From: Candidatus Omnitrophota bacterium
GTDB taxonomy: Bacteria > Omnitrophota > Gorgyraeia > DTHP01
Length of the DNA: 64,000 nucleotides
Direction of reading: 5' to 3'
Assembly: GCA_023819145.1 (NCBI GenBank)
Contig: JAMWCW010000003.1
Coordinates: 4,321 to 68,320, forward strand
Shown here: positions 19,080 to 62,187 of the stretch, one piece after another
How the letters are laid out: the number at the start of each line of letters is the position of its first letter
How positions within the stretch are numbered: position 1 is the first letter of the stretch
The notes under the pieces: generated by a model
What the model was told of the DNA's origin: nothing
Seen by the model: the letters and a program-made list of their open reading frames with translations, nothing else
Databases searched by the model: none
Made by a program: the position numbers and the translations under genes

Positions 19080-20158
19080 GAAAGACACTTGCTGAGATAG
19101 CGGCGATTATTGAAGGAGAGGTAGTTGGAGACCCTAATACTATTATTACGGGAATATGCGGGATAAAGGAAGCAAAGGAAGGAGATATTACTTTCGTAGC
19201 AAATTCAAGATATCTCTCTTTGATGAATCAAACACACGCCTCTGCCATAATTACTTCACGCGAAGTCAAATCTGCACCTAAGCCAATTGTCCGCACCGAG
19301 AACCCCTCCCTTGCCTTTGTAAAAATGGTTTCACTTTTTGCCCCAAATGAGGTGCATCATCCCAAAGGTATTCATCCCACTGCAGTTATCGGTAAAGATG
19401 TGAAGATTGGCAAGAATGTTTCTATACATGCCTATGCGGTAATTGAGGATAAGGTAGAGCTGGGAGACAATACGGTGATTTATCCCTATGCTTATGTTGG
19501 GCATTATACAAAGATTGGTTTTGATTGTTTAATACATTCACACGTTTCTATAAGAGAGAGGGTTACGATTGGAAACAGGGTTTGTATTCATAGTGGAACA
19601 GTAATAGGTAGTGATGGATTTGGTTTCGCTACGGTTAAAGGTGTGCATCATAAAATTCCACAGATTGGAACGGTGGTGATAGAGGATGATGTGGAAATTG
19701 GTGCGAATGTAACAATTGATCGTGCTCGTTTTGGCAGGACATTTATTGGCAAGGGGACGAAGATTGATAATCTTGTACAGATTGCTCACAATGTAGAAAT
19801 TGGAGAGAATTCAATTATTGTTGCTCAAACAGGTATTTCCGGAAGTACGGTAATTGGTAAAGGAGTTACTTTAGCAGGTCAGTCGGGCATAGTAGGACAT
19901 ATTACGATAGGGGATAATGCAGTAATCGCTGCCCAAGCAGGGGTTACCAAATCGGTTCCTCCCAACACTTGCGTTTCAGGTTATCCTGCTAAGCCACACA
20001 GTTTGGCGAAAAGGATAAATGCCTGTATTCAGAGATTACCTAAATTGTTTGAAACGGTTGCGGAATTAAAGAATAAATTACAAGATTTATCTCAAGAGTT
20101 GTCCAACCTGACGGTAAAGGAGAATATAGATAATGGAGTATCAAAAGACAATCGGTAA
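19076..20158 (+). CDS. lpxD: UDP-3-O-acylglucosamine N-acyltransferase
   Basis: 360 aa; hexapeptide-repeat left-handed beta-helix; lpx cluster context. Confidence 0.9.
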   Translation: MRKTLAEIAAIIEGEVVGDPNTIITGICGIKEAKEGDITFVANSRYLSLMNQTHASAIITSREVKSAPKPIVRTENPSLAFVKMVSLFAPNEVHHPKGIHPTAVIGKDVKIGKNVSIHAYAVIEDKVELGDNTVIYPYAYVGHYTKIGFDCLIHSHVSIRERVTIGNRVCIHSGTVIGSDGFGFATVKGVHHKIPQIGTVVIEDDVEIGANVTIDRARFGRTFIGKGTKIDNLVQIAHNVEIGENSIIVAQTGISGSTVIGKGVTLAGQSGIVGHITIGDNAVIAAQAGVTKSVPPNTCVSGYPAKPHSLAKRINACIQRLPKLFETVAELKNKLQDLSQELSNLTVKENIDNGVSKDNR

Positions 20159-21458
20159 AGAGGTGGAATTGAAAGGAACGGGTTTACACACCGGAGAAGA
20201 AGTAAGAATTAAATTTAAACCTTCTTTACCGGACGCAGGAATAGTTTTTAAGCGTATAGACCTGCCAGGCAAGCCTTTTATTCAAGCCACGATGAATAAT
20301 ATAATCGATATAAACAAGAGTCCACGCCGGACTTCTATAGGGAGCAATGGCGGAGAAGTCCATACTATTGAACATTTGATGGCAGTTCTCTCTATTCTTA
20401 ATATCGATAATATCTTGATAGAGATTGATGGACCGGAAGTTCCGGGGATGGATGGCAGTGCGTTCCCTTTTCTGGAGGTTTTGGAAAATGCCCGCATAGA
20501 AACGCAGAATGCTTTACGAAAGCTTTTTCAGATTAGAGACCCTATTTGGATTAGTGAAGGAGATTCCAGTATAGTAATTTTACCCAGCCAAGAATTTAAA
20601 ATTTCCTATCTTCTTTCTTATGACCACCATCCCTATTTAAGACCTCAGTATTTAAATTTTGTGGTCAATAGAGATATCTTTATGAAAGAGATTGCTCCTG
20701 CGAGAACATTTTGTCTTAAGGAAGAAGTGGAAGTTTTAAAAAATCAAGGGTTAGGTTTGGGTGCTAATTATGAGAATACCGTAGTGGTGGGAGAGAAAGG
20801 AATATTGAAAAACAGATTGCGTTTTGAAGACGAATTTGCACGTCACAAGGTTCTCGATTTGATTGGAGACCTTTATCTCTTGGGATACTCTTTGAAGGGG
20901 CATGTAATTGCCATAAAGAGTGGGCATCCCCTCAATATAAAAGTGTTGCAAAAAATTGAACAGCAGCGAATTCGTCTTGTTGAAGGAGCAATAAAATCTG
21001 TTTCTACAAATTTTGAATTAGAGAAAGCCTATTTAGATATAAATGATATCCAAAAAATTTTGCCTCATCGCTATCCTTTCCTTTTTGTAGATAAGATAAT
21101 AGAAATCCAGGAGGACAAACGGGCGGTGGGTATAAAGAATGTGACCATCGACGATTACTACTTTCAAGGGCACTTTCCAGGAAGGCCGGTAATGCCAGGA
21201 GTGCTTATTGTAGAGGCGATGGCCCAGGTTGCAGGGGTGCTTATGCTTTCTAAGAAAGAGAATCAAGGGAAACTTGCTTATTTTATGAGCATAGACAATG
21301 TAAAGTTTAGACGTACTGTTCTTCCGGGAGACCAATTGCATTTAGAAGTAGAGGTGGTTCGATTAAAATCTAAAACAGGTCAAGTCCATACCAAGGCATT
21401 CGTGGATTCTAAGATTGTAGCGGAGGCTGATTTGATGTTTGCCTTGGTAGATGCTTGA
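20133..21458 (+). CDS. lpxC: fused UDP-3-O-acyl-GlcNAc deacetylase / 3-hydroxyacyl-ACP dehydratase (LpxC-FabZ)
   Basis: 441 aa; N-terminal LpxC domain, C-terminal FabZ hot-dog domain ([27 protein letters not shown]). Confidence 0.9.
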
Positions 21459-22337: not shown

Positions 22338-23150
22338 ATGGAAAAAATGAGAAAAATCGGATTGATTGCCGGAAGGTCGCGTTATCCCTTGCTTCTTGCA
22401 GAAAAGGCAAGAGAACAGGGGTTTACTATTGTTGCTATAGGCATAAAGGGTGAAACTTTACCAGAGATAGTAAATTATGTTTCTGAGACTCACTGGTTAG
22501 AAGTTGGAGAATGGGGGAAATTGGTAGGCATATTAAAACGCGCAGGTATTAAAGAAGCAATCATGGCAGGAGGCATTAAGAAAACTCTTCTTTTCAGAAA
22601 CGATGTCCATATTGATAAAGCCGTTTTAGAGCTCATTGATTCTTTAAGGGACAAAAAAGACATGTCTATATTAAATGCTTTTGCACAACAGTTAAAGAGA
22701 GAAGGGATAGAACTCTTAGATTCTGCTTCTTTTCTGGAGGATCTTTTACCCTCCAAAGGATGTCTCACCGAACGCATCCCCAATTCTTTAGAATGGGAGG
22801 ATATAAAATTTGGTTGGGATATAGCTAAAGAAATAGCGCGGGTTGATATCGGTATGACTGTAGTAGTGAAAAATAAGGCCGTGTTGGCAGTAGAAGCGAT
22901 AGAAGGGACAGACGAGACAATAAAGAGAGGGGCTTTGTTGGGCGGAGAAGGGACAGTAGTAATAAAGGTTTCTCGTGTAGAACAGGATAGGAGGTTTGAT
23001 TTGCCAGTGATAGGATTGAATACCATTAAAATAATGGAAGAGGCTAAGGCAAGAGTTTTGGCTATCGAAGCAAACCAGGTGCTTTTTATTGATCAGGAAA
23101 GAGCAATTGAAGAAGCAAACAAAGCAAATATTTCTATTGTAGCTATATGA
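22338..23150 (+). CDS. lpxI: UDP-2,3-diacylglucosamine hydrolase, LpxI (DUF1009) type
   Basis: 270 aa; DUF1009-like size and position immediately after lpxA; no LpxH homolog seen in window. Confidence 0.7.
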   Translation: MEKMRKIGLIAGRSRYPLLLAEKAREQGFTIVAIGIKGETLPEIVNYVSETHWLEVGEWGKLVGILKRAGIKEAIMAGGIKKTLLFRNDVHIDKAVLELIDSLRDKKDMSILNAFAQQLKREGIELLDSASFLEDLLPSKGCLTERIPNSLEWEDIKFGWDIAKEIARVDIGMTVVVKNKAVLAVEAIEGTDETIKRGALLGGEGTVVIKVSRVEQDRRFDLPVIGLNTIKIMEEAKARVLAIEANQVLFIDQERAIEEANKANISIVAI

Positions 23151-23854
23151 AAGAAAAAAAACCCTTGTTTGTTAAACAACTTAAGGCATTATCAAAAATT
23201 AGTGAAGCCATTACCTCAGATTTATATTTAGAAGATATTTTAAAATTAATTGTTAATGTTACTGCGCAGGTAATGGATTCTAAAATTTGTTCCCTTTTTC
23301 TCTTAGATGAAAAGAAAAAAGAACTGGTCGTTAAGGCTACGCAGTCAATTTCTGAAGCCTATAACAAAAAACAAAATCTGAAATTGGGAGAGGGGATTGC
23401 GGGTAGGGTAGCACAAGAAGGACGGCCGATTATAGTTTTAGATGTACGTAAAGATCCACGTTATGTAAATCAATCGATTGCTAAGAAAGAGGGGCTCTGT
23501 TCTCTCCTTAGCGTTCCGTTAAAGGTTAAAGGGAGAGTAATTGGTGTGCTTAATATATATACTGCAAACCTTCACCGTTTTAGCAAGGAAGAGGTTGATA
23601 TTCTGATGACGGTAGCTAATCAGGCAGCAATTGTTATTGAGAATGCTTGTTTGATAGTGGAATCGAAAGTTATCCGCGAAGAATTAGAAGCACGTAAATT
23701 TATTGAGCGAGCAAAGGGAGTTTTAATGAAAGAAGAAAAACTTTCTGAAGAAGATGCTTATCGTAAAATACAGAAATTTGCGATGGACAATCGTCGGACC
23801 ATGCGCGAAGTAGCTGAGGTTATTTTACTTAGTTACAAGATGAAAAAAAGGTAA
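23147..23854 (+). CDS. GAF domain / ANTAR RNA-binding antitermination regulator
   Basis: 235 aa; N-terminal GAF-like region, C-terminal ANTAR-like helices (ELEARKFIERAKGVLM...AYRKIQKFAMDNRRTMREVAE). Confidence 0.75.
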   Translation: MKEKKPLFVKQLKALSKISEAITSDLYLEDILKLIVNVTAQVMDSKICSLFLLDEKKKELVVKATQSISEAYNKKQNLKLGEGIAGRVAQEGRPIIVLDVRKDPRYVNQSIAKKEGLCSLLSVPLKVKGRVIGVLNIYTANLHRFSKEEVDILMTVANQAAIVIENACLIVESKVIREELEARKFIERAKGVLMKEEKLSEEDAYRKIQKFAMDNRRTMREVAEVILLSYKMKKR

Positions 23855-26840: not shown

Positions 26841-26868
26841 TTGACATAAGTTTTAATTATCATAAAAT
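26841..26868 (+). promoter_or_regulatory. sigma70-like promoter upstream of ATP-grasp/kamA cluster
   Basis: TTGACA (26841-26846), 16-nt spacer, TAAAAT (26863-26868). Confidence 0.45.
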
Positions 26869-26937
26869 ATTAACAGAAATCCTTAAAAGTAAAGGAGGTT
26901 GTAGTTAATTAAAATTGGATAAATTGTATTTATTTTA

Positions 26938-26967
26938 AGAGGCAAAAAAGAGAGCCTCTTTTTTTTT
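26938..26967 (+). terminator. intrinsic terminator-like hairpin in leader of ATP-grasp gene (candidate attenuator)
   Basis: AGAGGC-aaaaaagaga-GCCTCT followed by nine T; sits between promoter and ATG 26996. Confidence 0.6.
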
Positions 26968-26995
26968 GCCAAAAGAATCAAAAGAAGGAAATAAA

Positions 26996-27985
26996 ATGGG
27001 GAAGGTTGTAGGATTAACTTATGATTTAAAACAGGAATACGTTTTTAAGGAAGACGACCCTCCTGATGCCAATGCTGAATTCGACCATTGGCAGACAATC
27101 GATGCGATAGAGAGCGCTTTGGCAAAAGGAGGGCACAAGGTAGTAAAAATTGGAAATGTTTGTAATCTTCTTAGAAAATTAGACAAGATAAAAGCAGATA
27201 TCGTTTTTAATATCGCGGAAGGCATTCAGGGGAGAAATAGAGAATCGCAGGTTCCTGTAATCTTAGAACTAAAAGGTATTCCCTTCGTTGGTTCGGACGG
27301 ATTAACTTTAGCCCTTACTTTGGATAAACTTTTTGCAAAAAAAATTTTTATTGCCGAAGGTATTCCTACCCCCCGCTTCTTAGAAATTTCCCAACCCGAT
27401 ACTATAGGAAAATTTAATCTCAATTTTCCGCTTATTGTTAAACCACGTTACGAGGGTTCGAGCAAAGGGCTTTCTTTCGATTCCATGGTTAGAGATGTAA
27501 GGAGTTTGCGTGAGAGAGCAAATTGGATAATAAAGGCATACCGCCAACCTGCAATAGCAGAAGAGTTTATAAAAGGCAAGGAGTTCACAGTGGTGGTCTT
27601 AGGAAACAATCCTCCTAAAGCCCTCCCGCCGGTGCAAATAAGTATTGATGGAAGACTCAACTTGGGAGAGAGATTCTATACTTTTGGACACATTCGTTCA
27701 CGTTCCTTAAAATACATCTGCCCTGCAAAAATTTCTCAACGATTGCTTAAGCGAATCGGGGATTTAGCGATAGAAGTTTATCGAGCAGTGGAGTGTCGAG
27801 ACTTTGGGAGGGTGGATATAAGGGTTAATGAAAACGACGAACCGTTTGTATTAGAAATAAATCCTCTTCCCAGTCTTTCTTTAGCGGATGTATTTCCTAT
27901 TGTAGGAAGGCAGGTTGGTATGAAATACAAAGATATGATTAACCAAATTCTTAACTGTGCTTTAGAAAGGTATGGACTTTTATGA
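26996..27985 (+). CDS. ATP-grasp ligase, D-Ala-D-Ala ligase family (paralog 1)
   Basis: ATG at 26996 (ORF track TTG 26966 lies inside terminator T-run); Ddl-like blocks FNIAEGIQG, IPFVGS, LIVKP..EGSSKG, EEFI.GKEFTV, LEINPLP. Confidence 0.8.
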   Translation: MGKVVGLTYDLKQEYVFKEDDPPDANAEFDHWQTIDAIESALAKGGHKVVKIGNVCNLLRKLDKIKADIVFNIAEGIQGRNRESQVPVILELKGIPFVGSDGLTLALTLDKLFAKKIFIAEGIPTPRFLEISQPDTIGKFNLNFPLIVKPRYEGSSKGLSFDSMVRDVRSLRERANWIIKAYRQPAIAEEFIKGKEFTVVVLGNNPPKALPPVQISIDGRLNLGERFYTFGHIRSRSLKYICPAKISQRLLKRIGDLAIEVYRAVECRDFGRVDIRVNENDEPFVLEINPLPSLSLADVFPIVGRQVGMKYKDMINQILNCALERYGLL

Positions 27986-29013
27986 ATATTCTTCTTGTTT
28001 ATAATCTTAAGAGAAAGAATCTTTCTAAAGGAGTCCCTCCTGATTTTTATTCTGAATTCGATTCATATAAAACAGTAGGTTCTATTGCCGAGGCTTTAAG
28101 GAAAAAGGGACACAAGGTTAATTTGGTAGAGGCTAACAACCAACTAATCGCTTATCTTTTAAGAAATAGAGAGAAGATAGATTTTGTTTTTAATATTGCC
28201 GAGGGCATAAATGGTTATTCCAGTCGAGAATCTCAAATTCCCGCTATTCTCGATTTCCTTAGAATTCCCTATACCGGTTCAAACGTCTTGGCTATGGCAG
28301 TTGCCTTGGATAAAGCCTATACTAAGAAACTGTGTCTTGCAGAAGGCATCCCTACTCCAAAATTTCAACTCTTTGTTACCGGAAGAGAAAAGTTAGATTC
28401 CGCTCTTCGTTTTCCTTTGATTGTTAAGCCTAATGCGGAAGGTTCTGCCAAAGGTATTTATCGAGATTCGGTTGTCTATGATAGAAAGAACCTTTTAGAG
28501 AAGATAAAAAGGGTAATGTGCAATTATAAACAGTCAGTATTAGTTGAAGAATTTATTGTTGGTAAAGAACTAACTGTAGGAATTATTGGTAATGATAGCC
28601 CATTAGTTCTTCCTATCCTTGAGATCGATTTTAGTTCCTGTCGTGGTTCAGGAGAATTTTTTTATTCTTGGAGGATGAAAGAGTTTCAAGGAAACCAAGA
28701 ACAACATCTTACTCCCACTTTTTACTGTCCCGCAAGATTAAAACCTGATACAGCAGCAGAAATTTCTCATTTAGCTTTGAAAGCTTACAAGGCTTTGGGA
28801 TGTTACGATTTCTGTCGTATAGATTTTAGGTTAGATAAAAAAAACAGGCCGTATCTTTTGGAGATAAATCCTCTACCGGGGCTAGATCCCCTGGAGAGTA
28901 ATTTACCTTTGATGGCAAGGACCGCGGGAATAAATTATAACCAGTTGATTAATAAAATATTAGAATCGGCAGTAAAAAGAGTAAATGGAAAGTTGAACAG
29001 GGGAAAGAAATGA
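27982..29013 (+). CDS. ATP-grasp ligase, D-Ala-D-Ala ligase family (paralog 2)
   Basis: 343 aa; IPYTGS, LIVKPNAEGSAKG, EEFIVGKELTV, YLLEINPLPG; ATGA overlap with paralog 1. Confidence 0.8.
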   Translation: MNILLVYNLKRKNLSKGVPPDFYSEFDSYKTVGSIAEALRKKGHKVNLVEANNQLIAYLLRNREKIDFVFNIAEGINGYSSRESQIPAILDFLRIPYTGSNVLAMAVALDKAYTKKLCLAEGIPTPKFQLFVTGREKLDSALRFPLIVKPNAEGSAKGIYRDSVVYDRKNLLEKIKRVMCNYKQSVLVEEFIVGKELTVGIIGNDSPLVLPILEIDFSSCRGSGEFFYSWRMKEFQGNQEQHLTPTFYCPARLKPDTAAEISHLALKAYKALGCYDFCRIDFRLDKKNRPYLLEINPLPGLDPLESNLPLMARTAGINYNQLINKILESAVKRVNGKLNRGKK

Positions 29014-29029
29014 AAGGAGGGAGGTTCAT

Positions 29030-30301
29030 TTGAATACGCTTATTTATAGCAATAGAGTGACCAGTCTATGGCAAGATGTCTCTGAAGAGGAGTGGGAAGA
29101 TTGGCATTGGCAGTTAAAGAATCGGATTACCACCTTAAATGAATTACGGCAGGTTATTCAAGTTGTTCCGGAGGAGGAAGAAGGAATAAAGGTTTCACGG
29201 GGAAGGCTTGCTATGGCCATTACTCCTTATTTTGCGAGCCTTATGGACCCTCTGAGACCAAATTGCCCTATCCGAAGACAGGCAGTTCCTTTACTTGATG
29301 AAACTTTTATTAGTTCTTATGATATGCTTGACCCTTGCGGAGAGGACAAATCTTCTCCTGTTCCGGGCCTCGTCCACCGCTATCCTGACCGAGTCCTTTT
29401 ATTAGTTACTGAACATTGTGCGATGTATTGCCGTCATTGTACCAGACGGAGGATGGTAGGAGAAAAAGAATCTTGCCTTGCCCCAAACCACCTTGTCCAG
29501 GCATATGATTATATCCGTTCCAACAAAAAAGTTCGCGATGTGCTTATTTCCGGTGGCGACCCCTTAATACTTTCCGATGAAAAGTTAGAGGAAATTATTA
29601 AGAATATCCGTGCCATACCTCATGTAGAATTTTTACGCATTGGAACACGTGTGCCCGTAACCTTGCCCATGCGTGTTAATTCTGAGTTAGTTTCCATGTT
29701 AAAACGTTATGCACCTATTTGGATAAGTCTTCATTTCAATCACCCCAAGGAAATAACTAAGAGGTGTAAGATTGCTTGTGATATGCTTACTGATAACGGA
29801 ATTCCTTTAGGTAGTCAGACGGTGCTTCTTAAGGGAATAAATGACCGTCCCTATATCATGAAAAAACTAATGCACGAACTTTTAAAGATTAGGGTCCGGC
29901 CTTATTACATCTATCAATGCGACCTCGCCCGCGGTACAAGTCACTTCCGCACGCCTGTTTCGGTAGGGATAAATATTATAGAAAAGTTGAGGGGGCATAC
30001 TACGGGTTATGCAGTGCCTACTTATGTTGTAGATGCTCCAGGGGGAGGCGGGAAAATTCCTGTGGCACCTAACTATATTATATCTCAGGCTAAAAACCAA
30101 TTTATCTTGCGTAATTACGAAGGCAAGGTATTTACTTATTTTGAAGATTCCACTAGTTATCTTACCGGGACAAGAAAATACTTTACAAACATCCCTTTTT
30201 TTGGTAGACTGAAATACAAACAGGAGACCTTGCAAAAACAATTCTTTTTTGATTTCTTAGAAACAAAGAAAGAAGAAAATTCCCTTTCCCGGGCGGCATA
30301 A
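29030..30301 (+). CDS. kamA: lysine 2,3-aminomutase (radical SAM, KamA family)
   Basis: 423 aa; CAMYCRHCTRRR 4Fe-4S motif, PVPGLVHRYPDRVLLL, VDAPGGGGK; TTG start with AGGAGGGAGG RBS. Confidence 0.9.
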   Translation: MNTLIYSNRVTSLWQDVSEEEWEDWHWQLKNRITTLNELRQVIQVVPEEEEGIKVSRGRLAMAITPYFASLMDPLRPNCPIRRQAVPLLDETFISSYDMLDPCGEDKSSPVPGLVHRYPDRVLLLVTEHCAMYCRHCTRRRMVGEKESCLAPNHLVQAYDYIRSNKKVRDVLISGGDPLILSDEKLEEIIKNIRAIPHVEFLRIGTRVPVTLPMRVNSELVSMLKRYAPIWISLHFNHPKEITKRCKIACDMLTDNGIPLGSQTVLLKGINDRPYIMKKLMHELLKIRVRPYYIYQCDLARGTSHFRTPVSVGINIIEKLRGHTTGYAVPTYVVDAPGGGGKIPVAPNYIISQAKNQFILRNYEGKVFTYFEDSTSYLTGTRKYFTNIPFFGRLKYKQETLQKQFFFDFLETKKEENSLSRAA

Positions 30302-30359
30302 GCAGGGCCCGTTTATATAGATTAATTCCTTTTAAAAGGGAAAAAGGAGGTGAAGTAAA

Positions 30360-31040
30360 ATGAACTGGAAAGAACTTTTGGTAGATCCGTTTAAAGAAAT
30401 GCTTGCACGGTTTTTTGGTTTTCTGCCTACCTTGGTAAAAGTTTTAGTAGTACTTATTGTAGGTTGGCTTCTCGCTAAGTTTATTCAGAGGCTTATTACC
30501 CGTGGGCTTAAGCTAGCAAGACTTGATGTTTTAGCAGAGCGCTGTGGAATTCACCGGTTTCTCTCTAAAGGGGAAATAAAACATACCCTCTCTGAGCTTT
30601 TGGGAATTCTTGTTTATTGGTTTATGCTTATTGCCGTGGGCATAACGGTGATAAACGTCTTGGGACTTACGGTAGCGCAGGACCTTTTTAGCAAAATAGT
30701 CCTCTATATCCCGAAAGTGGTCGCCTCCATATTTATTCTGGTTGTGGGAATATTTTTTGCCACTTTTATGAATACCAGTGTACGCACCGCTTCTACAAAT
30801 GCGGGAATTAGTCAAGCCAGATTATTAGGGCAACTCACCCAAATTGCCATTATCATTTTCTCAATAGCTATTGCTGCGGAGCAACTAAATATCGGAACCA
30901 GAATAATCAGTTCTTTGGTAACTATCCTTTTAGGTTCTATTGGACTGGCGGTAGGTCTGGCTTTCGGTTTGGGTTGTAAAGAAATGGCAGCCAGATTTCT
31001 TCAGGATTGGTTAGAAAAGACTAAAACAAAAACTTGGTAG
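30360..31040 (+). CDS. integral membrane protein with MscS-like conserved TM-helix repeats
   Basis: 226 aa; several hydrophobic helices with repeated basic-flanked segments; family assignment tentative. Confidence 0.6.
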   Translation: MNWKELLVDPFKEMLARFFGFLPTLVKVLVVLIVGWLLAKFIQRLITRGLKLARLDVLAERCGIHRFLSKGEIKHTLSELLGILVYWFMLIAVGITVINVLGLTVAQDLFSKIVLYIPKVVASIFILVVGIFFATFMNTSVRTASTNAGISQARLLGQLTQIAIIIFSIAIAAEQLNIGTRIISSLVTILLGSIGLAVGLAFGLGCKEMAARFLQDWLEKTKTKTW

Positions 31041-31066
31041 AGAAAATTTATTATTTATAGAAGAAA

Positions 31067-31098
31067 GGGAGAGCGAGAGCTCTCCCTTTTTGTATTTT
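31067..31098 (+). terminator. intrinsic terminator after membrane protein gene
   Basis: GGGAGAGC-gaga-GCTCTCCC hairpin followed by TTTTTGTATTTT. Confidence 0.75.
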
Positions 31099-31113: not shown

Positions 31114-32169
31114 TTGAAAATAGGCATTATAGGTCCGCCCTTAAGTGGGAAAACGTTACTTTTCAATACTTTATTGGGTGGTGTTTCTTTTAAGAAAGGA
31201 GAGCATATGCCTGAAGGGATAACGCTCCATTTAGGAACAATAAAATTGGAAGACGAGCGTCTCTATAATCTTGCAAAGAAGGTTGGCTCAAAGAAAATAA
31301 CTTTTTCTGAAATAGGGATCATCGATTTGGCTTTGTACGAACAGAATAAGAAGAATTGTTTTGACTCTTCTTTCTTACGAGAAGCCGATGGTTTTGTAGT
31401 GGTTGTAAGATGTTTTGAGTATCCCGGCGCAATCTCTTTTAATCCTTTAAAGGATGCGAAAGGTATTGAGGAAGAATTAATCTTGAAAGATCTGGAAGTT
31501 ATTCAGAAAAGAATGGATAGGATTGAGCAAGATATTAAAAAAGGTAAAAAAGAAGAAAAAGAATTGGAAGTTTTAAGAAAGCTTAGCCAGCATCTGGAAG
31601 ATAATAAGGCGTTAAGGAATGTGCGACTTGAAGCGGGAGAAGAGAAGCAGCTGTGTGGTTTTAAATTTTTGAGCCAGAAACCCATATTTTTTGTTCTAAA
31701 CGTAGATGAAAGAATGGGCTTAACAGAGATAGAAGAAATAGGTAAGTCCTTTACTCAAGAGGGGTATAATTTTATTCTTACCTCATTGAAAATTGAGAAC
31801 GAGTTGAACGAAATGGAAGAAAAAGAACGCTTTGTTTTTTTGGAAACTTTTGGCTTTAAAGATTTGATAAAAGAACGCTTCCTTTCTGCCTGTCTGAGTT
31901 TTTTAAACTTAGTAAGTTTTTTTACAGTGAAAGGAGAAGAGGCAAAGGCATGGCTTATTGAGAAAAACACTCCTGCCATCAAGGCAGCAGGGAAGATTCA
32001 TTCAGATATAGAAAAGGGTTTTATAAAAGCAGAGGTTATAAACTATAAAGACTTCGTAGAGGTAGGTTTTTCTTTCAGCGAAGCCAGAGCAAAGGGGTTA
32101 GTCCATCTGGAATCAAAAGATTATATTGTTAATGATGGAGACATAATTGACTTTCGTTTTGCTATTTAG
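31114..32169 (+). CDS. ychF: ribosome-binding ATPase YchF-like (Obg-family P-loop NTPase with TGS domain)
   Basis: TTG at 31114 with AAGAGG RBS; GPPLSGKT P-loop, VVVRCFE, AGKIHSDIEKGFIKAEVI, KDYIVNDGDIIDFRF. Confidence 0.8.
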   Translation: MKIGIIGPPLSGKTLLFNTLLGGVSFKKGEHMPEGITLHLGTIKLEDERLYNLAKKVGSKKITFSEIGIIDLALYEQNKKNCFDSSFLREADGFVVVVRCFEYPGAISFNPLKDAKGIEEELILKDLEVIQKRMDRIEQDIKKGKKEEKELEVLRKLSQHLEDNKALRNVRLEAGEEKQLCGFKFLSQKPIFFVLNVDERMGLTEIEEIGKSFTQEGYNFILTSLKIENELNEMEEKERFVFLETFGFKDLIKERFLSACLSFLNLVSFFTVKGEEAKAWLIEKNTPAIKAAGKIHSDIEKGFIKAEVINYKDFVEVGFSFSEARAKGLVHLESKDYIVNDGDIIDFRFAI

Positions 32170-32182
32170 TAGGATATATAAT

Positions 32183-32767
32183 ATGAATAAACAGACGATA
32201 GGAAAGAATATTTTTTGGGGAGCAATATTTTTGTTATTTGCTTTTATGAATTTTTCTTGCGCCTTGAAGATAACGGAAGAGGATATTAAAAAAGTAGAAA
32301 ATTTTGACCCTCAGTTCAAAACACTTCTATCCCAAAAGAGAAATATCGCAGAAAAGGTTATGGTTTTAGAGCATAAGATTACTTTGGAAAAGTTAGAGAC
32401 AGATAAGCAAATAGAGGTAATTAGAGGTCAGTTTAGAGATAAGAAGAAAGAGATTGAAAAAGAAATTATTGAGGTTAGAAAAGGGCTTGATCCCGGAATG
32501 AATGGGATAAAGGACAAAATAAAAGAACTTAATCAGAGCCTTTCTTCTTTAATGAAGAGACTTTCTACTATAGAGAATATGCTTAAAAATACAAAAAACT
32601 TAATGAGAAAGTCTCAAGAGACAAGCATTGTCCTTAAAGATAAAACAGATTGGGAAAGGGAGATTAGCGTCTTAGAGAAAGAGAAAGAAGAAATTAATAC
32701 CAAGATTCAAGGGATTAGAGAAGAAATTGCTCTTTATGAACTAGAGTTGAGAATACTGAGACAATAA
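32183..32767 (+). CDS. secreted or membrane-anchored coiled-coil protein, hypothetical
   Basis: ATG at 32183 (MNKQ); hydrophobic N-terminus, then heptad-rich K/E sequence. Confidence 0.55.
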   Translation: MNKQTIGKNIFWGAIFLLFAFMNFSCALKITEEDIKKVENFDPQFKTLLSQKRNIAEKVMVLEHKITLEKLETDKQIEVIRGQFRDKKKEIEKEIIEVRKGLDPGMNGIKDKIKELNQSLSSLMKRLSTIENMLKNTKNLMRKSQETSIVLKDKTDWEREISVLEKEKEEINTKIQGIREEIALYELELRILRQ

Positions 32768-36833: not shown

Positions 36834-37313
36834 TTACTCTACAATTTCTCCGATGTAGCTGAATTGCCAGCATTCGATAGCAATCGCCCGTAAGTGCTCT
36901 ACGGTTCCGGGTTGATAGGTTACTGCATAGTCTATCGCTACTTCCTCTTTAACCTCTCCTCCCAGCGTAGAGTAGGGTTTTTCTAAGATTTCTTTTAGTT
37001 TCGGGTCAGTGACATTGATTACCAGTTTACCTCCTCTTAACTCCGCGGTTCCTAAAAACTCACCCTTGGTTGCTTTTTCGGGGTCAAGAGCATAAAAATT
37101 TACTCGCATTTCTACTTTCTCTTCTGGTTTTGTAGGTTCTGAAGAAGTGCTGGGTGAAAGAATAGGAGTAGGTTCTTCACGCGTATTTTGGATTACGGGA
37201 ATTTCTCTCTCAAGGGAAATATATTTTTTTTCCTTTTTGGGCAACCTTAGCACAAAAATAATAGCGCTGATAAGCAAGATGATTAAGATAAAATTTAACT
37301 TCTTCATTATCAT
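36834..37313 (-). CDS. hypothetical membrane-anchored protein
   Basis: Minus-strand ORF 36834..37346; ATG at 37313 preferred; N-terminal TM helix then Pro/Ser/Thr-rich linker; no family recognised. Confidence 0.45.
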   Translation of the reverse strand: MIMKKLNFILIILLISAIIFVLRLPKKEKKYISLEREIPVIQNTREEPTPILSPSTSSEPTKPEEKVEMRVNFYALDPEKATKGEFLGTAELRGGKLVINVTDPKLKEILEKPYSTLGGEVKEEVAIDYAVTYQPGTVEHLRAIAIECWQFSYIGEIVE

Positions 37314-37396
37314 TTTTAGTCTAAATCTTCCTTTACTGTTTGTCAAGATAAATCAAACTTGCAGAAAAAGAGTTGTTTTGTTAAGATAATTCTAAA

Positions 37397-41489: not shown

Positions 41490-41798
41490 ATGATAAAAGA
41501 TATTTTAGTGATATTTTTGGGTCTTTTAATTTTAGGAATAGTTCTTTTTTCTCTACGTTTGGTAAAGGCCAAGAGGAACTATGAGTTTATAACTGATTTG
41601 TTCAACCAATTAGATATTGATAATGGAGAAAAAGAGCCAGATAAAGTTCACCAAAAATTCACAAAGATGCAACCGTGTTGTAAAGGCGGTAGTGTAGAAT
41701 TTCCCAAAAGAAAGGAGGTGAGAGACAAGCAAAAAAGATGGGAATTTAGCTATAAAGCACGCAAATATCTTTTAAACGAAAGGAGGAGAGTGAAATGA
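41490..41798 (+). CDS. small membrane-anchored basic protein, hypothetical
   Basis: 102 aa; single N-terminal TM helix; no recognisable domain. Confidence 0.4.
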   Translation: MIKDILVIFLGLLILGIVLFSLRLVKAKRNYEFITDLFNQLDIDNGEKEPDKVHQKFTKMQPCCKGGSVEFPKRKEVRDKQKRWEFSYKARKYLLNERRRVK

Positions 41799-46796: not shown

Positions 46797-47462
46797 ATGG
46801 AAAGACATTTGGACAACGAGTTAAAAGAATTAACAAAAAAACTTTTAGAGATGGCGGGGCTTGTAGAAGAATCGATTTATAAAGCTATTGATTCTTTGAA
46901 AACGCAGAATAAAGATAAGGCAGAAGAGATAATAAACAACGACAAGAATATCGATGAACTGGAACTTGTTATTGAGGATAAATGTTTAAGCTTACTCTCG
47001 CTTTTTCAGCCCCAGGCAAGCGATTTAAGATTTATTACCAATGCCACAAAGATAAATGCGGAATTGGAACGCATTGCGGATTTATCAGTAGACATTGCTC
47101 AACGGGTTATAGAGTTGGTGGATAAGCCTTTGATTAAGCCGCTTGTGGATATTCCTAAATTAGCAGAAGTTGCTCAGAAGATGGTTAAGGAAGCAATAGA
47201 CGCTTTTGTAAATCGCGATGAAGAGCTGGCTAAAAAAGTAGTACTTTCTGACCGCGAAGCGGATTCTTTGCGCAACCTTGTGCACCGCGAGTTGGTTTAT
47301 GACTATATAGTAAAGGATGGAACTACCGCTCCTCGTGCTGTTCCTCTTTTGTTAGTTGCTCGGCACTTAGAACGGATATGCGACCATGCTACCAATATTG
47401 CTGAAGATGTAATTTATATGGTTTCTGCTAAAGTAGTTAAGCACCATCCTGAGAAATTATAA
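46797..47462 (+). CDS. phoU: phosphate signalling complex protein PhoU
   Basis: 221 aa; two PhoU repeats (ELERIADLSVDIAQ / LERICDHATNIAEDVIYM). Confidence 0.9.
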   Translation: MERHLDNELKELTKKLLEMAGLVEESIYKAIDSLKTQNKDKAEEIINNDKNIDELELVIEDKCLSLLSLFQPQASDLRFITNATKINAELERIADLSVDIAQRVIELVDKPLIKPLVDIPKLAEVAQKMVKEAIDAFVNRDEELAKKVVLSDREADSLRNLVHRELVYDYIVKDGTTAPRAVPLLLVARHLERICDHATNIAEDVIYMVSAKVVKHHPEKL

Positions 47463-48590
47463 CATCATCTCTAAGATTATTTTTGCTGCTTGCTCTACTG
47501 CTCCGGATGTTCCCAGCCTGTTTTTAACCATCCTTAATTTTTCTTTCATTTTTTTTAGTTCTTCAGGGTTATTTAAGATTTCCATTACTTTTTGGGAGAT
47601 TTTCTCTGGCTTTGTTTTATGTTGAATAAATTCAGGAACTATCCTTTCTCCCGCAACAATATTTACCATTCCAATATAAGGGATTCTTATCTGTGGTCTA
47701 ATTATAAGCCATGTTAAAAAAGATGTTTTGTAAATGACAAACATTGGTTTTTCTAAAATAGCGGTTTCTAAAGTGGCAGTTCCTGAGGAGACAAGAACAA
47801 AATCTGCCAGTTCAATACAGTCGTAACTATTTTTTATAATTTTAATGTTAAACGCACAATGTTTAAGGTGAGGATAAAAGAGATTTTCCGGAAGGTTTGA
47901 TGATTGGGAAAGGGCGAATTGAATATTAGGGAATTTCTTAGAAATTAATTTTGCAGTTTTTAACAATATTGGTAAATGTCTTTTAACCTCTATTTCCCTT
48001 GAACCGGGAAGTAAAGAAATGATTCTTTTTGAGGGGTCAAATTTATATTTTTCCAACAGTTCGCTCTTTTTCTCTATGGGTTTGACAATGTCCAATAACG
48101 GATGACCTACAAATACGGCATCGATGTTATGAGCCTTGTAGAGGTTTTCTTCAAATTTAAAGATTACAATCATTTTATCTACCAATTTTTTTATCAATTT
48201 AATTCTATTTTTTCCCCAAGCCCAGACCTGAGGCGAGATGTAATAAGCCAATTTAATGTTTCTTTTTTTTACCTCTTTTGCAAAGCGGAGGTTAAATCCT
48301 GGATAATCAATGAGTATAACCAAATCGGGTTTTGTTTCATCAAGTTTTCTCACCAGAAGATTGAAAATTTCTTTAATTTTTCTAAGATTCTTAAGCACTT
48401 CCCAAAACCCCACAACTGCTAAATCTAAAAAATTATAAAAAATTTCTACACCTTGGGATTTCATCAATAGTCCCCCCGCACCGCAGATTCTTATCTTTGG
48501 GTCTATTTCTTTTATGGCTTTGGCCAAGCTTGCTCCGTGGAGGTCTCCTGAAGACTCACCGGCAACGATGAAAATTGTTTTTTCGCTCAT
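47457..48590 (-). CDS. lpxB: lipid-A-disaccharide synthase
   Basis: Minus ORF 47457..48623; ATG at 48590 (MSEKTIFIVAGESSGDLHG) preferred; GT-B LpxB motifs. Confidence 0.85.
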   Translation of the reverse strand: MSEKTIFIVAGESSGDLHGASLAKAIKEIDPKIRICGAGGLLMKSQGVEIFYNFLDLAVVGFWEVLKNLRKIKEIFNLLVRKLDETKPDLVILIDYPGFNLRFAKEVKKRNIKLAYYISPQVWAWGKNRIKLIKKLVDKMIVIFKFEENLYKAHNIDAVFVGHPLLDIVKPIEKKSELLEKYKFDPSKRIISLLPGSREIEVKRHLPILLKTAKLISKKFPNIQFALSQSSNLPENLFYPHLKHCAFNIKIIKNSYDCIELADFVLVSSGTATLETAILEKPMFVIYKTSFLTWLIIRPQIRIPYIGMVNIVAGERIVPEFIQHKTKPEKISQKVMEILNNPEELKKMKEKLRMVKNRLGTSGAVEQAAKIILEMML

Positions 48591-49503
48591 TTTCTTTAAT
48601 CTTCTCAAGAATCTGAAAAGCAAGTTTTAAGGCAAGATAGGCTTCTTCTCCGGAGACAATAGGATTTGATTTCTTATGCAGGCAATTTATGAAAGAAGTT
48701 ATTTCTGCTTTTAAAGGTTCTTCTTTTTTTACAGAAAGTAAGCGAGACACAATTCTTTTCTTCTCTTTACGATAAACCATTACCTCCTGCTTGAAGTAAT
48801 CTAAGGAGATATAAGCACTCTCTTTGAAAATACGTATCTTACGCATTATCTCATCGGAAACACGGCTGGCAGTAAGATTACAGATTGTTCCGTCAGTAAA
48901 TTTAATTCTTGCGTTGGCAATGTCTTCATATTTAGTAAGAATTTTTACTCCCATCGCATCGATTGTTTCGATACTTGCTTTAACTAAAGTGAGGATGATA
49001 TCGATATCATGAATCATTAAATCTAAGACTACGCCCACATCTTTTATGCGTGGACTAAATTTGCCTAAGCGATGGCACTCAATAAACCGCGGTTTCCCCG
49101 GCAGTTTCATTATAGTTTGGATTGCTGGGTTAAAACGTTCAATATGACCTACCTGGAGAATGCATTTTTTTTCTTTAGCAATTTTAAGAAGCTCTTCTGC
49201 TTCTTTTATATCTGCCGTAAGCGGTTTTTCTATGAGACAATGGACGCCATTTCTCAAAAAATCTTTCCCAATAGCATAATGGATAGTGGTAGGAACAGCA
49301 ATGCTTACTGCTTCCACCAGAGGGATTATTTTATGGTATTGGGGATAATAGTTTGTTTTTAATAATCGGGCAAGTTTTTTCGCCTTTTCTGGGTTTATAT
49401 CACATACGCCTACCAATTCTACATTCTTCATCTCAGAATATACCCGCGCATGGATAGAACCCAGTTTCCCTACTCCAATAACCGCAACTTTTATCTTATG
49501 CAT
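48556..49503 (-). CDS. Gfo/Idh/MocA family NAD(P)-dependent oxidoreductase (possibly GnnA-like)
   Basis: 315 aa; N-terminal Rossmann KVAVIGVGKLGSIHA; directly upstream of lpxB on same strand. Confidence 0.75.
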   Translation of the reverse strand: MHKIKVAVIGVGKLGSIHARVYSEMKNVELVGVCDINPEKAKKLARLLKTNYYPQYHKIIPLVEAVSIAVPTTIHYAIGKDFLRNGVHCLIEKPLTADIKEAEELLKIAKEKKCILQVGHIERFNPAIQTIMKLPGKPRFIECHRLGKFSPRIKDVGVVLDLMIHDIDIILTLVKASIETIDAMGVKILTKYEDIANARIKFTDGTICNLTASRVSDEIMRKIRIFKESAYISLDYFKQEVMVYRKEKKRIVSRLLSVKKEEPLKAEITSFINCLHKKSNPIVSGEEAYLALKLAFQILEKIKENERKNNFHRCR

Positions 49504-52673: not shown

Positions 52674-52741
52674 GAAAAATTTGTGCCACCGAATCAAAAA
52701 CAAGCTTATTTCTATTTAAATCATTTAGAGGAGCCCCCAAC
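52674..52741 (+). repeat. 68-nt exact direct repeat, copy 1
   Basis: gaaaaatttgtgccaccgaatcaaaaacaagcttatttctatttaaatcatttagaggagcccccaac; identical copy 147 nt downstream. Confidence 0.9.
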
Positions 52742-53330
52742 AGATTACAAAATATATGAAAAACTGGAGCAGAAATCACTACTGACAGAACAATTTATAC
52801 AAGAACTAATAAAAGCGTTTGAAAAATTTGTGCCACCGAATCAAAAACAAGCTTATTTCTATTTAAATCATTTAGAGGAGCCCCCAACTAAAGCCGATGT
52901 TCTAGATTTTTTAAAAGGTTTAGGAGGATTTGATCAAGCCAGTGAGTCGGCAATCAAAAGTTTTATAGCAGACTTAGAGAATGGTAAGGTAGTACTGGGA
53001 GATGTTATACTTACTGGCCATCTTGATCGCCCAGACACAACCGCCGGCGGTGATTTTACCGGGAGTTTTCCCGTATCGACCCTCACTTTGACCATTAATG
53101 TGAGTCCAGTTGGGCTCGATGTTCCCGGTGGCAAACTTGAGATAACATTCGGTAGCCACGGAATGGATGGAAAAATTTCCGAGGGAGTATATGGTCTTTT
53201 GGCATCGGCTCCTAAAGGGCAAATATGGGTTTCTCCTGTATTATTAGCTCTTGTAGGGGAAGGGATAAAGAGTGCACAAGATTCTCGTCGCGCTACCTAT
53301 ACCACGGTACCAATGGGAACAAACGAATAG
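52683..53330 (+). CDS. hypothetical protein with tandem duplicated N-terminal segment (VPPNQKQAYFYLNHLEEPP x2)
   Basis: 215 aa, GTG start; internal 147-nt period with 68 nt identical; C-terminal half Gly/Thr-rich and GC-richer; followed by terminator. Confidence 0.45.
   Translation: MPPNQKQAYFYLNHLEEPPTDYKIYEKLEQKSLLTEQFIQELIKAFEKFVPPNQKQAYFYLNHLEEPPTKADVLDFLKGLGGFDQASESAIKSFIADLENGKVVLGDVILTGHLDRPDTTAGGDFTGSFPVSTLTLTINVSPVGLDVPGGKLEITFGSHGMDGKISEGVYGLLASAPKGQIWVSPVLLALVGEGIKSAQDSRRATYTTVPMGTNE
52821..52888 (+). repeat. 68-nt exact direct repeat, copy 2
   Basis: Identical to 52674..52741 by direct reading; in-frame (147 nt = 49 codons) within the same ORF. Confidence 0.9.
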
Positions 53331-60609: not shown

Positions 60610-62187
60610 TTGTCAAATATAATTATGGGAGAACTTGGTAAAGTCCATAGGAAATTAGCTAATTCGGCGGTAATAATTGGCATAGGGACAGCTATTAGCC
60701 GTTTCTTGGGTTTGATAAGGGATATAATCATTGCCCGTGTTTTTGGCACCTCAATTTTAGCAGATAGTTTTTTTGTTGCTTTTAGGATACCCAATCTTCT
60801 CCGCGACTTTGTAGGGGAGGGAGCGACCAATTCCGCTTTTGTTCCCGTTTTTAGTGAGTATTTGGTAAGAAAAGAATTTAATGAGTATCAGCGGTTGGTC
60901 AATGCTTTGTTCAAAATTGCTGTATTGATTCTCTTAACAGTAAGTATTCTAGGGATAATTTTTTCTCCGTTTATTGTAAGTATTATTGCCCCTGGTTTTA
61001 AATTAACGCTTAATAAATATCAAATTACTGTAAGCCTTACGAGAATAATTTTCCCTTACATATTTTTTATTGGTCTTACTTCCTTCTTTATGGGGATATT
61101 GCACTCCCATCAGCTTTTTGCCTCCTCTGCGTTCTCCCCTTGTATGTTAAATCTTGCTTTGATTATGGGAGCTGTTTGGTGGGTAAAGTACATTGGCGTT
61201 TATGGTCTTGCTTGGGCAGTAATTTTAGGTGGTATTCTACAGGTTCTAATTCAGATTCCTTCACTTAAAAGGACGAATTTTAAATTTAAATTAAAGGATT
61301 GCTTCAAACACCCCGGCGTAAATAAAATAGGTAAGCTTCTTCTTCCACGGGTCTTAGGTTCAGGTGTCTATCAGATAAATTTATTTGTGGATACTATTTT
61401 GGCTTCACTTTCTAAGATAGTAGGCGAGGGAGGAGTTTCTGCTCTATATTATTCCAACCGACTCGTTCAATTACCTTTAGCCATCTTTGGCATTTCCGTT
61501 GCTCAAGCAGCTCTGCCTACAATGGCGATTGAGTCTCAAGAGAATAATTTTGATAAATTGTCACAGACGATTTTATTCTCCTTGAGGAATGTTTTTTTTA
61601 TTACCCTACCTTCTGCGGTGGGCTTAATAGCACTCTCTGTTCCCATTACCCGCATCCTTTTTCAGCGAGGGGAGTTTGGGATATATTCTACCCAAATTAC
61701 TTCTTCGGCTTTGTTATTTTATTCTTTAGGGCTGTTCGCTTATGTAGGAATAAAAATTCTTGTTTCTGCTTTTTACTCACTCCAGGATACTTTTACGCCG
61801 GTAAAGATTTCCAGCCTTTCCTTACTTATAAATATAATCCTTAATGTTATTTTAATGTTTCCTTTGAAGGTTTCTGGTTTAGCTTTAGCCACTGCCCTTT
61901 CTGCCTCGTTTAATTTTTCTTTGCTTTTTAAACACCTTAGAAAGAGAATTGCGTCTTTAGAAGCAAAAGATTTGTTATTTTCTTCAATGCGCATTCTTCT
62001 TGCATCCCTGTGCATGGGAATAATGGTTAAGATTTCCTTTTATATTCTAAATTATCTTCTGAAAAACGAAATTTTACAAGTTTTGTTAGCAATTGGCATA
62101 GGTATAGTTTTTTATATTGTTTTTTGTTTTATCTTTAGGGTGAGAGAATTGTACCAGGTGAAGAAATGGATATTAGGGAGAAGATAA
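60610..62187 (+). CDS. murJ: lipid II flippase MurJ
   Basis: 525 aa; 14-TM MOP-superfamily protein; N-terminal AVIIGIGTAISRFLGLIRDIIIARVFG. Confidence 0.85.
   Translation: MSNIIMGELGKVHRKLANSAVIIGIGTAISRFLGLIRDIIIARVFGTSILADSFFVAFRIPNLLRDFVGEGATNSAFVPVFSEYLVRKEFNEYQRLVNALFKIAVLILLTVSILGIIFSPFIVSIIAPGFKLTLNKYQITVSLTRIIFPYIFFIGLTSFFMGILHSHQLFASSAFSPCMLNLALIMGAVWWVKYIGVYGLAWAVILGGILQVLIQIPSLKRTNFKFKLKDCFKHPGVNKIGKLLLPRVLGSGVYQINLFVDTILASLSKIVGEGGVSALYYSNRLVQLPLAIFGISVAQAALPTMAIESQENNFDKLSQTILFSLRNVFFITLPSAVGLIALSVPITRILFQRGEFGIYSTQITSSALLFYSLGLFAYVGIKILVSAFYSLQDTFTPVKISSLSLLINIILNVILMFPLKVSGLALATALSASFNFSLLFKHLRKRIASLEAKDLLFSSMRILLASLCMGIMVKISFYILNYLLKNEILQVLLAIGIGIVFYIVFCFIFRVRELYQVKKWILGRR

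Follow-up and report, generated by a model that had tools for sequence, protein, structure and literature searches.

A conserved operon pairing a lysine 2,3-aminomutase with two Ddl-like ATP-grasp ligases in Candidatus Omnitrophota, and its possible role in making beta-lysine amides

Why should a gene for a lysine 2,3-aminomutase (kamA) follow directly behind two tandem genes for ATP-grasp ligases that resemble D-alanine-D-alanine ligase (Ddl)? The question is raised by positions 26841-31098 of a 64,000-nucleotide stretch of a Candidatus Omnitrophota metagenome-assembled genome (MAG; contig JAMWCW010000003.1), the whole of which is referred to here as the window. A preliminary description had proposed that an ATP-dependent amide bond links beta-lysine with a different amino acid or with a second beta-lysine. 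Our analysis establishes, at the level of sequence, that KamA and two predicted-competent ligases other than Ddl form a conserved, co-regulated unit. On balance, we lean toward the explanation that this unit is an attenuator-controlled operon that would make a small beta-lysine-derived amide by two-step ATP-dependent ligation. The features of the unit, all on the + strand, are as follows.

26841-31098, +: transcription unit with promoter, leader, graspA, graspB, kamA, membrane protein gene and terminator
26841-26868, +: sigma-70-type promoter, TTGACA-16 nt-TAAAAT, matching the consensus at 11 of 12 positions
26894-26936, +: leader block, GGAGG at 26894-26898 and then AAAATTGGATAAA with a TTG at 26915; kept in relatives
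26915-26938, +: candidate mini-open reading frame (mini-ORF) MDKLYLF-stop, inside the leader block
26937-26967, +: leader hairpin (arms 26937-26943 and 26954-26960) followed by a 9-T run; putative attenuator resembling an intrinsic terminator
26996-27985, +: graspA, predicted Ddl-fold ATP-grasp ligase of 329 aa, ATG start
27982-29013, +: graspB, predicted Ddl-fold ATP-grasp ligase of 343 aa paralogous to graspA, ATGA overlap with graspA
29030-30301, +: kamA, predicted kamA/ablA-type lysine 2,3-aminomutase of 423 aa, TTG start with a strong Shine-Dalgarno sequence
30360-31040, +: gene for a 226-aa membrane protein with two PF05552 repeats; accessory gene, co-transcribed here
31062-31098, +: operon terminator (hairpin 31062-31091), 13-bp stem with 6 G-C pairs, then a T-run

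The genes of this unit are closely packed. We took ATG 26996 as the start of graspA, in agreement with the NCBI call (P0121), and set aside the mechanical ORF start at TTG 26966, so that the leader between promoter and graspA measures 128 nt. graspA and graspB overlap by ATGA (27982-27985), through which graspB is translationally coupled to graspA; the 16-nt spacer between graspB and kamA carries the Shine-Dalgarno sequence AAGGAGGGAGG ahead of the kamA TTG, and the 58-nt gap between kamA and the membrane protein gene is without a terminator. The promoter with its leader and the strong terminator had both been recognized earlier as the borders of the unit and were found again, while the leader's own hairpin and T-run (26937-26967) had been overlooked.

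The first step of the putative pathway depends on the identity of the aminomutase. Its 423-aa product holds the motifs CAMYCRHCTRRR, PVPGLVHRYPDRVLLL and DAPGGGGK, the hallmarks on which it had been called KamA-type rather than EpmB-type, and the model searches bear out that call: it scores 539 bits against TIGR03820, the NCBIfam model for AblA-type lysine 2,3-aminomutases (cutoff 525.4), and falls below the models for EpmB (TIGR03821, 233.7 vs a cutoff of 369.3), glutamate 2,3-aminomutase (474 vs 650) and arginine 2,3-aminomutase (418 vs 600). It matches the lysine 2,3-aminomutase of Clostridium subterminale, whose structure has been solved (PDB 2A5H), with 504 bits, its CAMYCRHC segment aligning with Cys125, Cys129 and Cys132 of that structure, and the CxxxCxxC pattern is kept in 70/70 homologs from related loci. 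The window protein and 70/70 homologs likewise keep the lysine-binding residues Arg134, Asp293 and Asp330 (2A5H numbering), of which Asp293 and Asp330 contact the lysine epsilon-amine, and the pyridoxal phosphate (PLP)-binding Lys337. The clostridial inter-subunit zinc site (Cys268 plus a C-terminal CxCxxC), a trait of the C. subterminale structure that lies outside the family model, is absent from the window KamA and from 70/70 homologs, position 268 being Arg, Lys or Asp in the homologs and the C-terminus being without a Cys motif. Because TIGR03820 is passed, the other models fail and the 2A5H residues are kept, the protein is accepted as a predicted lysine 2,3-aminomutase of the AblA/KamA type, not the EpmB type, and the predicted conversion of L-lysine to beta-lysine is strongly supported. 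All KamA proteins in the cassette and its variant loci are lysine-type.

The two ORFs upstream of kamA were confirmed as paralogous ATP-grasp genes whose products are 41% identical; each falls in a separate, tightly conserved family that is marked by an invariant signature. Their structure models are confident (predicted local distance difference test scores of 88 and 93), their top structural match is Ddl, and the graspB model compares with Ddl at template modeling scores of 0.75-0.86; both ligases have the Ddl-type ATP-grasp fold. We aligned 143 cassette ligases to Escherichia coli DdlB, using a reference identical to 2DLN/1IOV, and found the ATP, Mg and catalytic residues K97, K144, E180, E187, R255, D257, E270 and N272 kept in 100% of 72 A-type and 56 B-type sequences. 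Because these residues are invariant, graspA and graspB should both be active ligases.

Despite this fold, both proteins fall under all NCBIfam Ddl, VanA and VanG cutoffs; against TIGR01205 and PRK01372, which require 243 and 246, graspA scores 172 and 139 and graspB 209 and 185. The differences extend to the substrate site. In the Ddl/Van family, Tyr216 sets the specificity for the second substrate and Ser281 anchors the carboxylate of D-Ala2. Tyr216 is replaced by an invariant Glu in graspB (Glu234) and is variable in graspA, and Ser281 has become an invariant Asp in graspA; in both clades H63 is changed to Glu and E68 to Arg. Leu282 is Asn in B and Val in A, K215 is replaced in A, graspB keeps Lys233 and Ser306, and Ser150 (DdlB numbering) is kept in the cassette ligases. 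With scores under the cutoffs, H63 and E68 swapped, and Tyr216 and Ser281 replaced, graspA and graspB are, as far as their sequences tell, not bona fide Ddl enzymes. The new acidic residues at substrate positions would fit cationic substrates, a diamino acid for example.

Comparison across genomes ties these ligases to the aminomutase. A scan of a genome collection for relatives of the cassette yielded 80 loci, in about 50 of which graspA, graspB and kamA are adjacent and co-oriented with differing flanks. In 11 of the 80, graspA stands with KamA alone, and since it is the ligase retained in these two-gene cassettes, graspA appears to be the core ligase. The adjacency to kamA thus proved strongly conserved in relatives. 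Three relatives' contigs carry the A-B-KamA order among entirely different neighbors (one from an unlabelled lineage, one from an Elusimicrobia-labelled MAG and one from a Deltaproteobacteria-labelled MAG), and the loci with the trio include MAGs labelled Elusimicrobia, Margulisiibacteriota and Deltaproteobacteria. Loci from Chloroflexia and Dehalococcoidales have the order KamA-ligase-ligase. A second cassette type within Omnitrophota (L068 3293-7294, L073 4871-8949 and L076) combines a lysine-type KamA, 45-48% identical, with one Ddl-like ligase, a 329-aa protein faintly resembling RimK/LysX and a homolog of S66 LD-carboxypeptidases. A locus from a Methanosarcinales MAG (L058 6001-12722) encodes two Ddl-like ligases, a 441-aa protein with a faint likeness to the peptide-glutamate epimerase MurL, a PLP decarboxylase of the Orn/DAP type, a lysine-type KamA just under the AblA cutoff (510 vs 525) and a PEBP protein, and is without AblB.

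Gene fusions point in the same direction. An exhaustive graspA-family profile search returned 2584 representatives at E <=1e-30, and among the 151 examined (the best 150 plus P0511, the twin of P0429) 35 were ligase-ligase fusions with two Ddl-like modules and 2 were fusions to an aminomutase. One of the latter, P0461, is arranged KamA-then-ligase and translates correctly from its own contig; the other, P0429, is arranged ligase-then-aminomutase and was found in two independent sources. The aminomutase half of P0429 has Gln at position 293 instead of the lysine-binding Asp and may act on a substrate other than lysine. This fusion adjoins a homolog of GntC/VioD-like PLP cyclodehydratases and a RaSEA-like radical SAM (S-adenosylmethionine) protein (L088 3852-8088), which looks like a different pathway, possibly an arginine-derived one. 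The genes stand together in more than one order, show translational coupling and are fused either way round; taken together, these comparative grounds make it very likely that beta-lysine synthesis and the Ddl-like ligases are functional partners.

Other neighbors are less constant. In about 29-35 Omnitrophota loci (e.g. L005 2189-5766) the cassette is preceded by a recurrent set of genes for an M20 ArgE/DapE-family deacylase (in 29 loci), a PAC2-family protein, a HAD hydrolase and a PRK04334/UPF0280-type protein, usually parted from graspA by a leader of about 200 nt. This set could reflect synteny or be a salvage or turnover module. Because the PAC2, HAD and PRK04334 genes are missing from the window and from the cassettes outside Omnitrophota, they were set aside as pathway members in favor of probable phylum-level synteny.

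In addition to its genes, the cassette has a characteristic leader. The two closest relatives (L007 and L008) keep the promoter, the GGAGG ... AAATTG(G/A)A(A/T)AA block and the hairpin, but neither the DNA nor the gene further upstream of the promoter, and the stem shows a compensatory change. When sequences were folded one by one, a hairpin with a T-run was found 5' of graspA in 68/70 upstream regions, with a sigma-70-like promoter upstream of it in 54/70 loci. The stems covary, with GAGGC/GCCTC in the window, GGGGC/GCCCC in L008, and GGGCTC/GAGCCC, GAGACAC/GTGTCTC and GGGATAG/CTATCCC elsewhere; 24 leaders aligned by MAFFT, with hairpin arms out of register, gave zero pairs in RNAalifold, and per-sequence folding was used instead. 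In the window, the hairpin and T-run end 29 nt 5' of the graspA ATG, and in many loci the hairpin ends as little as 10-17 nt before it, leaving no room for a further promoter. The motif GGAGG-N10-18-TTGRAAAA, usually spaced N12-16, occurs 35 times in 947 kb of the loci, every time just 5' of graspA. Rfam has no match for the leader, searches of the whole window and a permissive run on the leader giving one tRNA and sub-threshold noise, and in the window the upstream portion of the leader is no more stable than shuffled sequences (z -1.0). We conclude that transcription attenuation probably controls expression of the cassette. The conserved leader, at 26886-26967 in the window and upstream of graspA in L001-L085, is a candidate for a new cis-element of the attenuator or riboswitch kind, in which the role of sensor could fall to a leader peptide, to a small riboswitch or to a protein.

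Two features bear on the nature of this sensor. The TTG mini-ORF usually begins Met-(Lys/Glu)-Lys, with Lys codons frequent at positions 2-3 and a spacing of 12-16 nt between Shine-Dalgarno sequence and TTG. Its length and sequence are not conserved, and some copies stop ahead of the hairpin and others run through it; given this inconsistency, a leader-peptide (TTG-Lys-Lys) model was not adopted. In the window, a GAF-ANTAR protein, which joins a small-molecule sensor to an RNA-binding antiterminator domain, is encoded 3 kb upstream of the operon (23147-23854) and is a possible trans-acting regulator of it. Inspection of the leader by eye showed no ANTAR-type dual hexaloop hairpins, and in the other loci the GAF-ANTAR gene is not linked with the cassette.

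In the explanation that we favor, KamA, a radical-SAM and PLP enzyme, would isomerize free L-lysine to beta-lysine, and graspA and graspB would each use ATP to phosphorylate a carboxylate, which an amine would then attack. graspA would carry out the core ligation and graspB would add a second group, yielding a beta-lysine pseudo-di- or tripeptide whose partner is another amino acid or more lysine or beta-lysine; expression would need read-through of the intrinsic terminator in the leader. We infer that the ligases use beta-lysine, or the first ligation product of it, from the strict gene linkage, the fusions and the remodelled pockets with their new invariant acidic residues. The ATP-dependent amide bond proposed in the preliminary description thereby gains comparative-genomic support from linkage and fusions, and keeps its conditional form.

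As to the role of such a product, our preferred guess, a speculative one drawn by analogy, is a cytoplasmic stress or compatible solute like N-epsilon-acetyl-beta-lysine, with the ligases capping the amine in place of the AblB acetyltransferase of methanogens. Besides the AblA-type aminomutase, hints in this direction come from the last gene of the operon. Its product had been described as a membrane protein with MscS-like helix repeats, and the repeats were recovered, the protein matching only the PF05552 'conserved TM helix' (transmembrane helix) repeat, in 2 stretches (E 5e-19). The MscS channel domain PF00924 is absent from it and NF033912 scores 78.8 vs a cutoff of 100, so that its domain content marks it as MscS-helix-like, not an MscS channel. 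In L007 and L008 a homolog lies 3' of the cassette, and in L009, L023, L051 and L052 directly 5' of it; with 7 loci in all, on either side, and none beside any other cassette, this gene is an occasional companion outside the conserved core. A published example has an ablA-ablB pair beside a gene for a mechanosensitive channel (PMC11201294). A further hint comes from L087 (195-6306), where a 702-aa fusion of KamA and a Ddl-like ligase is followed by a 518-aa fusion of a Ddl-like ligase and a GNAT domain and, further 3', by genes for FKBP, DUF8156 and two CPA2/Kef-type cation-proton antiporters. L087 seems to be a compact variant adding an acetylation step; an AblB identity for its GNAT domain was rejected, the domain being generic. 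The M20 deacylase gene upstream of the cassette in 29 loci, with yodQ of the Bacillus subtilis kamA operon as its parallel, may be counted among the hints as well. Taken as a whole, these hints at a solute or stress function are speculative.

As a separate observation, the window encodes a 206-aa predicted lipoprotein-like coiled-coil protein without a Pfam match at 32147-32767, homologs of which stand beside the cassette in 6 loci, directly 3' of kamA in L009 and L023.

Several points weigh against the favored explanation and should temper it. The product, the substrates and the role are all predictions from sequence, and the substrate assignments of the ligases depend on the alignment to DdlB, in which the N-terminal region around Glu15 is not reliably alignable with the cassette ligases. 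Much of the conservation sits inside a single phylum, in which shared synteny is enough to inflate the counts, all relatives come from uncultured organisms, and the upstream M20, PAC2 and HAD neighbors may be mere synteny. No separate canonical ddl was found in the part of the genome that was covered, the 64-kb window out of a 144-kb contig. The solute role in particular is weakened by the frequency of the cassette in groundwater, lake, peat and freshwater MAGs (as judged from record titles), by the presence of the MscS-like gene with just 7 cassettes, and by a GNAT in L087 that is not of the AblB type.

Four other explanations were weighed. The one that survives best, improbable as we judge it, is in fact a sub-case of the favored explanation with another product and role: the carboxylate of beta-lysine would be joined to the epsilon-amine of lysine or beta-lysine, giving a cationic oligo-beta-lysine or a beta-lysyl-lysine isopeptide that serves as a polyamine-like compound or an antimicrobial polycation. 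The logic of PylC in pyrrolysine synthesis and the poly-beta-lysine tail of streptothricin offer models for such chemistry. PylC is, however, a much weaker match than Ddl to the cassette ligases, genes for export or immunity show no consistent linkage, and the presence of two paralogs that differ and are not interchangeable suggests that two kinds of bond are made, not one bond over and over as in polymerization.

We give little credence to a second alternative, in which the ATP-grasp enzymes would place beta-lysine on a side chain or terminus of a protein or peptide, as an analogue of EpmA/EpmB acting on elongation factor P (EF-P) or else much as RimK, LysX or TTL do. The EpmB model missed the window KamA and neither epmA nor efp is nearby; tblastn with EF-P was negative in the window and 86 loci, and no gene resembling an aminoacyl-tRNA synthetase is adjacent. 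Equally unlikely in our view is a cell-wall role, with one or both divergent Ddl-type enzymes making an unusual stem-peptide terminus or a beta-lysine bridge. The fold and catalytic residues of both ligases would suit such a role, as would the LD-carboxypeptidase homolog and the weakly MurL-like protein of the variant cassettes, and MurJ, encoded at 60610-62187 of the window, shows that the organism makes peptidoglycan. These points are offset by the scores under every Ddl, VanA and VanG cutoff, by the replaced D-Ala-site residues, and by the tight linkage to kamA and a conditional attenuator. As the preliminary description had stated for this locus, the genes do not form a mur/fts cluster: such genes are found beside the cassette neither in the window nor in any other locus. 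A COG-based survey reported the division and cell wall (dcw) genes, including ddl, to be conserved in Ca. Omnitrophota (PMC12283558), which also speaks against a cell-wall role for the cassette ligases, although that call could detect these same paralogs and its ddl count may include genes of the graspA/graspB type. Finally, a meaningless adjacency of ordinary Ddl paralogs and kamA through inherited synteny, which the origin of most loci in one phylum might suggest, is close to refuted by the same trio with unrelated flanks, by other gene orders in other phyla and an archaeon, and by the translational coupling, the fusions in both orders and a leader found solely before graspA.

The favored explanation, an attenuator-controlled operon for a beta-lysine-derived amide, can be extended to a bolder and distinctly more tentative proposal. 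The cassettes may define a class of beta-lysine pseudopeptides, so far undescribed, that are made without the ribosome by Ddl-derived ligases working in tandem, whether separate, fused together or fused to KamA. Such a class would be widespread among Omnitrophota, would extend to Elusimicrobia, Chloroflexi and Methanosarcinales, and would be switched by a new cassette-specific attenuator RNA with lysine, beta-lysine or the product as a possible effector.

The remainder of the window, whose content was judged by a Pfam survey of about 60 ORFs, consists of genes lying nearly all on the + strand. Upstream of the operon are housekeeping and other genes for BamA, OmpH, LpxD, LpxC-FabZ, LpxA, LpxI, GAF-ANTAR, MnmG and BirA; downstream are YchF, which most likely starts at TTG 31116, 3' of the operon terminator, a GltD-like protein and GDH. 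The absence near kamA of a GNAT acetyltransferase, an EpmA-type ligase and lysine-fermentation genes, noted earlier, was borne out by this survey, which found none of these, and no efp or canonical ddl or mur ligase, anywhere in the window. A fused LpxC-FabZ (FabA-like) gene lies at 20133-21458 inside the lpx cluster, and the sole sizeable minus-strand genes encode LpxB and a GFO/IDH/MocA oxidoreductase (47457-49503). The SpoVG domain of the protein encoded at 9168-9620 seems to be split by a zinc-ribbon insertion, PF04026 (a model of 82 positions) spanning residues 23-145 with a Zn_ribbon at 80-101. ORFs without a Pfam match are found at 2496-4433, 52683-53330, 36834-37346 (- strand) and 41490-41798, one of them 645 aa long. 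GC skew is positive in almost all 2-kb bins of 1-64000, and skew and gene strand are consistent with a window that lies wholly on one leading-strand replichore.

How does this cassette relate to systems that are already known? As supposed in the preliminary description, the combination does not appear to be a characterized pathway: full-text searches, including one for Omnitrophota aminomutases, found no publication describing a pathway of KamA with ATP-grasp or Ddl-like enzymes. The nearest counterpart in terms of the aminomutase is the AblA/AblB system of methanogens and some bacteria, which makes N-epsilon-acetyl-beta-lysine. The window aminomutase passes the AblA equivalog model, beta-lysine would in both cases be made and then modified at an amine to give a cytoplasmic solute, and both have an occasional neighbor of the mechanosensitive-channel type (see PMC11201294 for the parallel). 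In contrast, the AblB GNAT is absent from the window and from the core cassettes, where two ATP-grasp ligases stand instead, and ATP-driven amide ligation is predicted here in place of transfer from acetyl-CoA.

Other aminomutase systems share parts of this arrangement. The yodT-yodS-yodR-yodQ-yodP-kamA operon of Bacillus subtilis links kamA to an M20 ArgE/DapE-type deacylase gene, yodQ. A similar deacylase lies upstream of the cassette in the 29 loci mentioned above, whereas the window has no M20 gene beside the cassette, and the B. subtilis operon has the GNAT gene yodP and CoA-transferase genes and is without ATP-grasp ligases. The EpmB/EpmA system also couples a KamA-family aminomutase to an ATP-dependent beta-lysyl amide ligase; that ligase, EpmA, is a class II aminoacyl-tRNA synthetase paralog and not an ATP-grasp enzyme, and the EpmB model fails here.

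On the ligase side, the cassette enzymes are 21-29% identical to Ddl and VanA/VanG, have a longer omega-loop, and, unlike ddl, are found without dcw context and linked to kamA. The L-amino-acid ligases BL00235, BacD/YwfE and RizA are more distant than Ddl and have another N-terminal domain, and to our knowledge none of them has an aminomutase partner. The closest mechanistic precedent is the pyrrolysine pathway, in which the radical-SAM enzyme PylB isomerizes lysine and PylC, an ATP-grasp enzyme of the Ddl superfamily, ligates the isomer to an amine, so that lysine isomerization is likewise followed by ligation; the pyrrolysine set itself (the methylornithine synthase PylB, the ligase PylC and the dehydrogenase PylD) is not what is found at this locus.

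If the proposed pathway is true, a function would be gained for genes of a large uncultured phylum whose routine annotation is now 'D-alanine-D-alanine ligase' or 'ATP-grasp domain protein', and genes of the graspA/graspB type can inflate the ddl counts of COG-level surveys. The pocket changes from Tyr216 to Glu and from Ser281 to Asp show how the scaffold of a cell-wall enzyme may be repurposed, and the three genes are small and self-contained enough for the pathway to be directly testable by heterologous expression. The cassette is a new variation on the known beta-lysine pathways, in which beta-lysine serves as an osmolyte precursor, a fermentation intermediate, a modifier of EF-P or a building block of antibiotics, and its coupling to two Ddl-derived ligases would, if true, add a fifth fate to these four.

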